Positions 17,654 through 19,018 of a stretch of DNA of 64,000 bases are shown here, piece by piece. The stretch is taken from assembly GCF_003790525.1 (NCBI RefSeq), contig NZ_CP033635.1; one strand, 5' to 3'. The stretch comes from Escherichia coli (lineage in GTDB: Bacteria; Pseudomonadota; Gammaproteobacteria; Enterobacterales; Enterobacteriaceae). Each line of letters opens with the position of its first letter. The stretch's first letter is position 1. Position numbers and translations under genes: made by a program. The notes under the pieces are model-generated. The model worked only from the letters and a program-made list of their open reading frames with translations. It did no database searches and was not told the origin of the DNA.

Positions 17654-18679
17654 TCAGGCGAGCTGCCGAGGTTGATATTCAGTATTGTGTGACAACATTG
17701 ACCACATGATCCTCGCTGTTTTTGCCGCCATGGCGACAACAGCTACATTGTAGTGCTTCCGCTCAAGGAGCCCCTGAAGCCAGGAATTCTCCTCAACCGC
17801 GCCGTTTCGGTTGACCCAGGCGGTAAGTGCGCGTGCGCCGTGAACCAGCAGGTATCGGAAATATCCATCTCCACGTTTGCTGATCCCTCCCAGTTGCTGT
17901 TTCCCGCCGCTGGAATGTTCCTTTGGTGTCAGCCCCAGCCATGAAGCGAACTGCTTTGCGGTACTGAATTGTCGGGCATTACCCACTGCTGCTACCACAT
18001 AAGTGGCCGTTAGCATGCCAACCCCCGGGATCTTGGCCATTCTCTGGCAGGCTTCCTGCGTTCTATACCAGGAGGCCAGAGCTTCTTCTACCTGTTTAAC
18101 TTGTTCTTCAAGTTCCCGGATATGTTTAGACTGTCTGTAGATGCTGGTTCTGACAAAGGGAGATAAACCATTTTCGCCATCCTCCAGAATGGCTGGCAGC
18201 TCACGTGTTAAATGGCTTTGTCCGGCCGCAATCGTAATACCAAACTCAGCAAGTGTGGCTCTTAAACTATTGGCACAGGCAATCCGCTCACGGATAAGTA
18301 TTCCCCGTTCAGTGTGTAACGCTAAAACGGCCTGCTGCTCTTCGGTTTTTATCTGAACAAAACGCATATTCGGACGGGTTACCGCTTCGCAGATTGCTTC
18401 AGCATCTGCTGCATCCGTCTTGTTCGTTTTCACATAAGGCTTCACATACTGCGGAGGTATGAGTTTTACCTCATGACCATAGCGGGTGAATAATCGCGCA
18501 AAATAATGACTGGATGAGCAGGCTTCCATGCCAATCAGACAAGGTTCCAGTTGAATCACAAACTGAACAAACTTAGCCCGGGTGAGCTTTTTACGCAAAA
18601 TAGTATGGCCTTCATGATCGACACCATGAAGCTGAAAAACGTTCTTTGCCAGATCGATACCAAGAGTTGATACTTTCAT
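17654..18679 (-). CDS. IS110-family DEDD transposase/recombinase (341 aa)
   Basis: N-terminal RuvC-like MKVSTLGIDLAKNVFQLHG…IGMEACSSSHYF, C-terminal Tnp domain GLTPKEHSSGGKQQLGGISKRGDGYFR with conserved Ser; resembles IS1111-subgroup transposases. Confidence 0.93.
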   Translation of the reverse strand: MKVSTLGIDLAKNVFQLHGVDHEGHTILRKKLTRAKFVQFVIQLEPCLIGMEACSSSHYFARLFTRYGHEVKLIPPQYVKPYVKTNKTDAADAEAICEAVTRPNMRFVQIKTEEQQAVLALHTERGILIRERIACANSLRATLAEFGITIAAGQSHLTRELPAILEDGENGLSPFVRTSIYRQSKHIRELEEQVKQVEEALASWYRTQEACQRMAKIPGVGMLTATYVVAAVGNARQFSTAKQFASWLGLTPKEHSSGGKQQLGGISKRGDGYFRYLLVHGARALTAWVNRNGAVEENSWLQGLLERKHYNVAVVAMAAKTARIMWSMLSHNTEYQPRQLA

Positions 18680-18747
18680 GTGGACGCCCCTAATTTTTCA
18701 GGACGTATTGCAACGATCCAGTCTGGTACTTTGATACCGTAAAATCT

Positions 18748-18758
18748 GGAGCGTCCAT
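18748..18758. repeat. Subterminal inverted repeat of the IS (5' side of recombinase gene)
   Basis: GGAGCGTCCAT, reverse complement of the repeat at about 17383-17393; a partial third copy (TGGACGCC) lies at the recombinase start. Confidence 0.5.
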
Positions 18759-19018
18759 CTCATTATCCCTGTAAAACGCGCCCTCAGCCCACATCCATGT
18801 GGGCTGCCCCGGCCTTCGGGGAACGCTTCAGCGATTTTGACGCCACCAACACCGGTGCGGTTTGTAATTAAAGCGCAAGAACATCTTTAAATGAAAACGA
18901 ATACTCTACTGCTCCTTATGCATAACATTTCCTTTTAATTGCAACTTTACTCGTCCTTCCGCTTTCAGTAGTGTGTCATCGCGCATTTCGACTTCATCTT
19001 TGCAAGGACTGGGTTTTC

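Follow-up and report, generated by a model that had tools for sequence, protein, structure and literature searches.

Why should a partial copy of the end repeat of an insertion sequence (IS) stand directly in front of the start codon of that element's own transposase gene? The question is raised by a 64,000-nt stretch of Escherichia coli DNA (contig NZ_CP033635.1 of assembly GCF_003790525.1; this whole stretch is referred to as the window), which holds on its minus strand a 341-aa open reading frame (18679→17654), the transposase gene of an element that is, judged by its sequence, an isoform of ISEc81 and thus a member of the IS1111 group of the IS110 family. An earlier reading of this DNA (the original prediction) had pointed out, in addition to the two end repeats, a third copy at the start codon and had suggested that it either forms a stem of about 70 nt in the 5′ untranslated region (5′ UTR) or duplicates recombinase-binding sites, with either arrangement allowing autoregulation of the recombinase. 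Our comparison of the locus with related elements leads us to propose, at a probability of roughly 0.6, that the third copy is the 3′ arm of an RNA helix (P1) whose 5′ arm is the left end repeat, with P1 closing the entire 5′ UTR and constitutively restraining transposase translation in cis.

The position and nature of the motif agree with the original prediction. On the plus strand, TGGACGCCCC is found at 18681–18690 and GGAGCGTCCAT at 18748–18758, and in the sense of the transposase the left end reads TAATGAG-ATGGACGCTCC-(57 nt)-GGGGCGTCCA-C-ATG, such that the third copy stops 1 nt short of the ATG and contains the Shine–Dalgarno (SD) sequence (A)GGGG. The motif is indeed the inverted partner of the left end repeat and overlaps the ribosome-binding site, and a repeat search places it in an inverted pair (18681–18697 with 18741–18757) with 17-nt arms that are 82% complementary and lie 43 nt apart. 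The 10-mer 18690–18681 complements the left repeat with one G·U pair, which corresponds to an A→G difference from the right repeat. Taken by itself, the motif is not significant, as ATGGACGCTCC with up to two mismatches occurs at 11 sites in the window compared with 16 expected, and the case for a function depends on what is predicted for the transcript and what is kept in relatives.

A stable structure that includes the start region is predicted for the window copy (−29.3 kcal/mol, z −2.43), a stability that 4 of 200 shuffled sequences equalled. The fold consists of the 10-bp helix P1 and a 6-bp helix P1b, which enclose the hairpins P2 and P3 (Table 1). The stem is therefore not one of about 70 nt but a pair of 10-bp and 6-bp helices closing a structured 5′ UTR of 77 nt; the idea of a stem across the 5′ UTR stands, in that the predicted pairing covers the ribosome-binding site and is backed by the comparative data below. 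No Rfam covariance model gave a hit at E ≤ 1 over 18680–18765, and the sole hit in 16500–19500 was a sub-threshold match to the anti-GcvB small RNA (sRNA) AgvB at 17175–17235 on the plus strand, just downstream of yohP, which is probably due to chance (22.9 bits against a gathering threshold of 56, E = 0.26).

About 100 related loci were gathered, and in these the end repeat could be identified for 61 distinct left ends, which cover 22 repeat types and 40–100% protein identity. The sources were 80 loci of 45–54% protein identity among the matches listed from a reference-genome scan, 12 closer relatives retrieved by exact protein look-up (including ISYen1 and ISEch3) and named plasmid-borne elements (including IS4321, IS5075 and IS5708). 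The left repeat starts 60–87 nt before the ATG in almost all of the 61 elements. In 42 of them, the best 11-nt match to the complement of the element's own left repeat is identical at 8 or more of the 11 positions, so the motif is kept in relatives, and in 36 of these 42 the match ends 1–3 nt before the ATG; the left-end consensus of the whole set reads ...AGGAGCGTCCAnnATG. The match also tracks repeat type, with ATGGTCGCCCC elements carrying GGGGCGACC, ATGGACTCCTC elements carrying GAGGAGTCC and GTGGACGGCTC elements carrying GAGCCGTCCAC. When pre-ATG pairing scores for own and foreign repeats were compared using one representative per repeat type, none of 5000 permutations reached the observed value, and 46 of the 61 elements outscored shuffled tails at p ≤ 0.05.

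The same pairing was recovered without guidance by RNAalifold, which predicted P1 and P2 from a plain MAFFT alignment of 35 left ends of uniform architecture; the full 61-sequence MAFFT alignment yielded no structure, being too gappy, with the third copy out of register in several rows. In the 35-sequence alignment, 92.3% of cells are paired, compared with 34–47% when the partners are slid by 1–3 columns, and two-sided changes affect 6 of the 10 P1 pairs and 2 of the 5 P2 pairs (0 of 500 shuffles reach the observed values), those in P1 comprising AU↔UA in 7 sequences, CG↔GC in 5 and CG↔UA in 7. In minimum-energy folds, at least 6 of the 10 bases of the SD window pair with the left repeat in 56 of the 61 elements (mean z −3.0). 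Complementarity, predicted stability, conservation and co-variation with the element's own end repeat thus extend across the IS1111 group. This conservation is the decisive evidence against a functionless chance likeness between the end repeat and a G+C-rich ribosome-binding region. Such a likeness would suit the motif being no commoner in the window than expected, but position and co-variation are preserved across the 61 elements and several repeat types, in relatives that are not near-identical copies (40–88% aa identity, 22 repeat types), and we consider chance very improbable. The feature being conserved and a stable structure being predicted, neither of the two outcomes that the original prediction had named as speaking against it was found.

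The P2 hairpin, together with the AAAGUG-like sequence that follows it, is the most conserved sequence of the left end; it is fixed at 19–23 nt from the left repeat in 39 of the 61 elements and never occurs in the 3′ non-coding region. Among the relatives, one element (L091) is missing its left repeat and has an intact SD-proximal copy, GGAGCGTCCA, and this element and L093, from unrelated hosts, both have a group II intron reverse transcriptase gene directly upstream of the IS. Three elements from Novosphingobium and Azospirillum (L045, L058 and L066) have left and right end regions that share inverted repeats of 64–68 nt instead of 11–15 nt, and may lie inside a palindromic target or may have duplicated one.

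Several observations weigh against a helix that acts in the transposase mRNA. In 19 of the 61 elements the match falls under 8/11 identity. Within the clade with short left ends, co-variation cannot separate RNA pairing from a DNA-level site, because any copy able to pair with the left repeat is bound to look like the right one. Compared with a perfect partner, the third copy shows 43 G→A differences, which produce C·A mismatches in the sense RNA, versus 16 that preserve wobble pairing; the G→A differences are concentrated at two SD positions (GGGG→GGAG), and the bias fits SD optimisation, yet it weakens a pure sense-RNA argument. Because of these mismatches the antisense strand of the left end folds slightly better across the family (in 39 elements versus 22, p = 0.004). 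The inward extension of the helix past the end repeat is a weak trend (3.5 versus 2.8 pairs of 8; 18 versus 9). Lastly, RNA folding, transcript ends and the translational effect are all inferences, with the start sites being predictions only.

Some of these points would equally suit a third copy that works as a DNA-level site. It could be an additional site for the transposase/seekRNA complex, with binding there repressing transposase expression in true autoregulation, or a second right end, with alternative excision products as a further possible outcome. Close relatives have a third copy that equals the right repeat at every position (GGAGCGTCCA, 10/10), in the short-left-end clade it follows the end repeats, the strand-symmetry tests express no preference for sense RNA, and internal end-box copies (A′/B′) of ISPpu9 act as recombination sites (PMC12288879). 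The separating evidence comes from the ISEc11 clade, in which the functional repeat, ATGAACGCATCCC, lies 125–143 nt before the ATG and matches the published 1443-bp element. The final ~80 nt of the left end keep the architecture in this clade, with the P2 hairpin GGCAUCAUAGUGCC inside, and GGAGACUCCACA at the SD has an internal arm, GUGUGGAGCCUC, as its pairing partner (GUGGAGCCUC : GGAGACUCCAC). A 73%-identical relative has GUGGAUCCUC/GGAGGAUCCAC, a compensatory G-C↔U-A change that distinguishes L102 from L105, while in L103 the end repeats have changed (ATGAACACATCC) and the SD-proximal arm has not. The SD arm of this clade is therefore no copy of the true end repeat and ignores its change, but still pairs with an internal arm that shows a compensatory change. 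This argues that what has been preserved next to the start codon is pairing and not a third site for the recombinase, and it leaves the proposed duplicate binding sites without support.

Functional data on ISEc11 bear on the same question. An ISEc11 mini-element with a left end of 50 bp transposes at 15–42% with transposase and seekRNA provided in trans (Siddiquee et al., PMC11187229), and by the boundaries drawn in our analysis these 50 bp exclude both the helix and P2, so that the helix is not a cis requirement for recombination in ISEc11. The position of the third copy is also fixed relative to the ATG with SD spacing, which speaks against a DNA-level site. A candidate role as an alternative right end was rejected, the downstream sequence CATGAAAGT being unlike the right extension plus flank ATATGTTACC and unlike the seekRNA guide segments; target-like flanks are needed for ISEc11 excision. 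On balance, we regard a DNA-level site as improbable.

The better folding of the antisense strand across the family would be explained by an antisense RNA, and it is possible, though in our view unlikely, that the main role of the inverted repeat is to form the stem of an antisense sRNA that is transcribed from a promoter in codons 2–12 and controls translation in trans, an arrangement that can coexist with a cis hairpin. From a start at ~18681, the candidate RNA would read out across the left end and be complementary to the whole transposase 5′ UTR. Start-proximal antisense windows reach a promoter score of 7.25/12, compared with 5.5 for shuffled sequences, 4.7 for the sense strand and 4.0 for internal controls, and scores of at least 8/12 are found in 51% of elements versus 3% of controls, including 9/9 members of the ISEc81/ISYen1 clade. 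The alanine codon of the invariant DLAK motif, the third base of which supplies a T of the antisense −35, is GCA in 62% of cases versus 18% for alanine elsewhere, with GCT not raised. Antisense sRNAs facing the 5′ UTR have been described for the IS110 group, in which ISPpu9 and ISPpu10 make them from the same position (PMC8450116; PMC12288879), and the candidate can be likened to IS10 RNA-OUT, IS200 art200 and Asr9/Asr10 of ISPpu9/ISPpu10. However, only 11 of the 61 elements score above their own shuffles (p ≤ 0.05), a promoter scan of the region gave 2 promoter-like sites versus 1.8 expected, no terminator follows the stem, and in the window copy it is the sense hairpin that is the more stable (−29.2 versus −23.6 for the antisense). 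Part of the promoter signal may also be coding bias, since the −35 falls within the codons of an invariant motif and gene starts are AT-rich. The candidate promoter points past the left end to lysO (start 18971/19019) and could drive this neighbouring gene or make an antisense regulator.

Repression in cis by P1, the reading we prefer, also has to be considered with respect to where transposase transcripts begin. A circular intermediate is known for the IS1111/IS110 family (PMC11187229, PMC12288879), and abutting the two ends gives a −10 hexamer of the form xTA|TAAT in 60 of the 61 elements, with a perfect TATAAT in 29, including ISEc81. A TTGCAA/TTGGCA-like −35 is present just inside the right repeat, and both hexamers match at 4 or more of 6 positions with a spacing of 16–18 nt in 45 of the 61. 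Conservation of the 3-nt and 7-nt extensions in sequence is accounted for by the junction −10, which forms across them. In this promoter model the right repeat occupies the spacer and the left repeat directly follows the −10, with the transcript predicted to start at base 4 of the left repeat. Junction transcripts and those reading through from neighbouring genes would both hold both arms of P1.

The proposed mechanism follows this layout. The left subterminal repeat, as UGGACGCUCC, would provide the 5′ arm and the SD-bearing GGGGCGUCCA next to the AUG the 3′ arm, with P1b adding 6 bp and the helix enclosing P2 and P3. Junction transcripts would begin with the 5′ arm of P1, if the predicted start is correct, and the helix would close their entire 5′ UTR. 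No transposase mRNA would then present a free ribosome-binding site, which would keep translation low in cis. The likeness of the third copy to the right repeat would be a by-product of two demands on the left repeat, since the right repeat complements it for transposition and the SD region complements it for folding. Autoregulation by the recombinase, as originally proposed, finds no support, and the evidence fits constitutive cis-repression of translation.

More tentatively, the ~85-bp left end of the IS1111 group could be a two-way RNA control module, with the junction promoter on one side and a conserved antisense promoter in the codons of the invariant GIDLAK motif on the other. The first would give an mRNA whose initial bases, the left end repeat, clamp the SD, and the second a stable hairpin RNA that begins with the complement of the third copy. 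One inverted repeat would thereby act as a DNA end in RNA-guided recombination, clamp translation in cis and supply the stem of an antisense RNA that senses copy number in trans. We consider this extended scheme doubtful; if it were true, the outward promoter of an integrated copy could read into a host neighbour, here lysO.

The assignment of the element, labelled IS1111-type in the original prediction, is borne out by its domains and end structure. The transposase contains the Pfam domains PF01548 (DEDD_Tnp_IS110, 3e-15) and PF02371 (Transposase_20, 1e-24), scores 359 bits against NCBIfam NF033542 ('IS110 family RNA-guided transposase', cut-off 140) and shows the C-terminal motif GL-P----SG, the rule for the IS1111 group (PMC11187229), as GLTPKEHSSGG. 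It differs by few residues from the ISEc81 entry (supplementary file 6, PMC11187229). Subterminal repeats of about 11–13 bp, a left extension of 7 (or 6) bp with a right one of 3 bp, and a downstream non-coding region define the group (PMC11187229); in the window copy the subterminal inverted repeats found by the repeat search are perfect (11/11, 17383–17393 with 18748–18758) and the non-coding region 3′ of the transposase gene measures 274 nt. All group features tested, namely the domains, subterminal repeats, asymmetric extensions, 3′ non-coding region and near-identity to ISEc81, were present.

Table 1 Features of the ISEc81 isoform, including predicted RNA and promoter elements, by position in the window.
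Feature	Position	Strand	Remarks
ISEc81 isoform	17380..18765	−	1386 bp under the convention of a 7-nt left and 3-nt right extension; from empty-site comparison
Right subterminal inverted repeat GGAGCGTCCAT (17393–17383) with 3-nt extension ATA (17382–17380)	17380..17393	−	
3′ non-coding region, expected source of seekRNA/bridge RNA	17394..17653	−	Location rule from PMC11187229, PMC11208160
Predicted junction −35 TTGCAT	17398..17403	−	16 nt upstream of the TATAAT formed by abutting ends
Transposase gene, 341 aa, DEDD/RuvC-like domain and Transposase_20	17654..18679	−	ATG at 18679–18677
Candidate antisense promoter TTGCCA-17 nt-GATACT	18646..18674	+	Antisense to transposase codons 2–12; predicted start ~18681, first base of the third copy
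Third copy GGGGCGUCCA, predicted 3′ arm of helix P1	18681..18690	−	Holds SD GGGG, 7 nt before AUG
Predicted P1b 3′ arm AAAAUU	18692..18697	−	
Predicted hairpin P3, GGAUCGU...ACGUCC	18701..18719	−	Position kept in relatives, sequence variable
Predicted hairpin P2, GGUAUCAAAGUACC	18725..18738	−	Family-wide GGYAUC..GURCC, with compensatory C-G↔U-A changes
Predicted P1b 5′ arm GAUUUU, inner extension of the closing stem	18741..18746	−	Lies beyond the sequence that the right end repeat shares
Left subterminal inverted repeat ATGGACGCTCC	18748..18758	−	Bases 18757–18748 (UGGACGCUCC) form the predicted 5′ arm of P1
Left 7-nt extension TAATGAG	18759..18765	−	First four bases, TAAT, are most of the predicted circle-junction −10

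The 3′ non-coding region probably encodes the seekRNA/bridge RNA, the body of which is likely to span 17431–17605 on the minus strand, judging from an 11-bp closing stem that pairs 17431–17441 with 17595–17605 in the repeat search. Three guide-like segments lie within it: 17535–17543 (GAGGTAACA) is complementary to the right flank, 17469–17475 equals the left-junction sequence GGGATAA and 17442–17449 (ATATATGG) matches a junction. Rfam release 15 gives no match over the 3′ non-coding region. Pairing between the seekRNA region and the 5′ UTR was considered and rejected, the sole strong duplex being the trivial one between the right and left repeats.

The insertion bounds, 17380 and 18765, were set against uninterrupted copies of a host intergenic repeat, with a 2-bp AT ambiguity, using two empty sites, one in K-12 (L001, aqpZ–lysO) and one in another strain (L002, yohP–dusC); the insertion point is CAGGGA^TGTTACC inside this repeated intergenic element. 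The host repeat (17202–17380 plus 18765–19000) occurs at 2–8 sites per genome (median 4) in almost all complete E. coli genomes, and ISEc81 is carried by 179 of 5426 complete E. coli genomes at 1–4 copies each. The flanks (window 16800–19300) comprise mdtQ–yohP on the left and lysO–hcp–hcr on the right, two loci that are distant in K-12, indicating a large chromosomal rearrangement with its breakpoint at the IS or at its host intergenic repeat. In strain KFu014 (L110, NZ_CP091712) the order is yohD–yohF–mdtQ–yohP–ISEc81–lysO–hcp–hcr.

The IS1111/IS110 elements are the source of the bridge-RNA/seekRNA recombinases under development for programmable genome rearrangement, and little is known of how the expression of their transposases is naturally restrained. 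The helix and P2 represent a structured 5′ UTR that is absent from Rfam and would offer a simple explanation for low basal activity, with the practical hint that the helix be removed or opened where these enzymes are expressed from native left ends. The third copy also provides an annotation rule, as it marks the true start codon. For ISYen1/IS1667 of Yersinia enterocolitica (P0027–P0049), many database transposase entries have 349 aa instead of 339 aa, which suggests that annotation placed their start codons further upstream, within the structured 5′ UTR.

Hiding the SD in a helix is a long-known strategy among mobile elements, to which ISEc81 would add a further example and no new principle. 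For the IS1111 group the mechanism is apparently undescribed, although older work on IS1111-family ends or on the ISEc11 junction promoter might mention the repeat. In IS10 and IS50, a terminal repeat reportedly pairs with the ribosome-binding region in read-through transcripts, a 'protection from outside activation' that is said to have been described by Davis, Simons and Kleckner in 1985 and covered in the 1998 review by Mahillon and Chandler. As predicted for ISEc81, the 5′ arm in these elements is their own end repeat, the 3′ arm covers the translation start signals and outside transcripts are silent. The resident promoter of IS10/IS50, however, starts inside the hairpin and native transcripts escape, whereas those of ISEc81 would also be repressed because the predicted junction start keeps most of the 5′ arm. 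Both IS10 and IS50 are DDE elements, in contrast to the DEDD element ISEc81.

In IS200, sequestration of the SD by a 5′ UTR stem-loop has been demonstrated by toeprinting and mutation (PMC4513863). The two elements share, by prediction alone in the case of ISEc81, a left-end inverted repeat whose hairpin in the 5′ UTR of the transposase mRNA hides a strong SD (AAGGGGGU in IS200, AGGGG in ISEc81) and represses in cis, and in IS200 an antisense RNA overlies the same 5′ UTR region. IS200 differs from ISEc81 in being a Y1/HUH element with hairpin arms that are distinct from its end repeats. Within the same transposase superfamily, ISPpu9 (IS110 group) has a structured 244-nt 5′ UTR that hides the ribosome-binding site, together with the antisense RNA Asr9 and the sense RNA Ssr9 (PMC8450116, PMC12288879). 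Weakening of the ISPpu9 structure raises translation, and its antisense promoter overlaps the transposase start, as does the ISEc81 candidate. In contrast to ISEc81, ISPpu9 has neither subterminal inverted repeats nor a junction promoter, its UTR is three times longer with arms unrelated to the ends, and no sequence similarity was seen. ISEc11, the experimental seekRNA model (PMC11187229), has the 7/3-nt extensions, subterminal repeats, junction promoter, 3′ seekRNA, P2 and SD-sequestering helix in common with ISEc81, but its left end is 150 nt long and the 5′ arm of its helix is internal and not the functional end repeat, so that ISEc11 has no true third copy at the SD.

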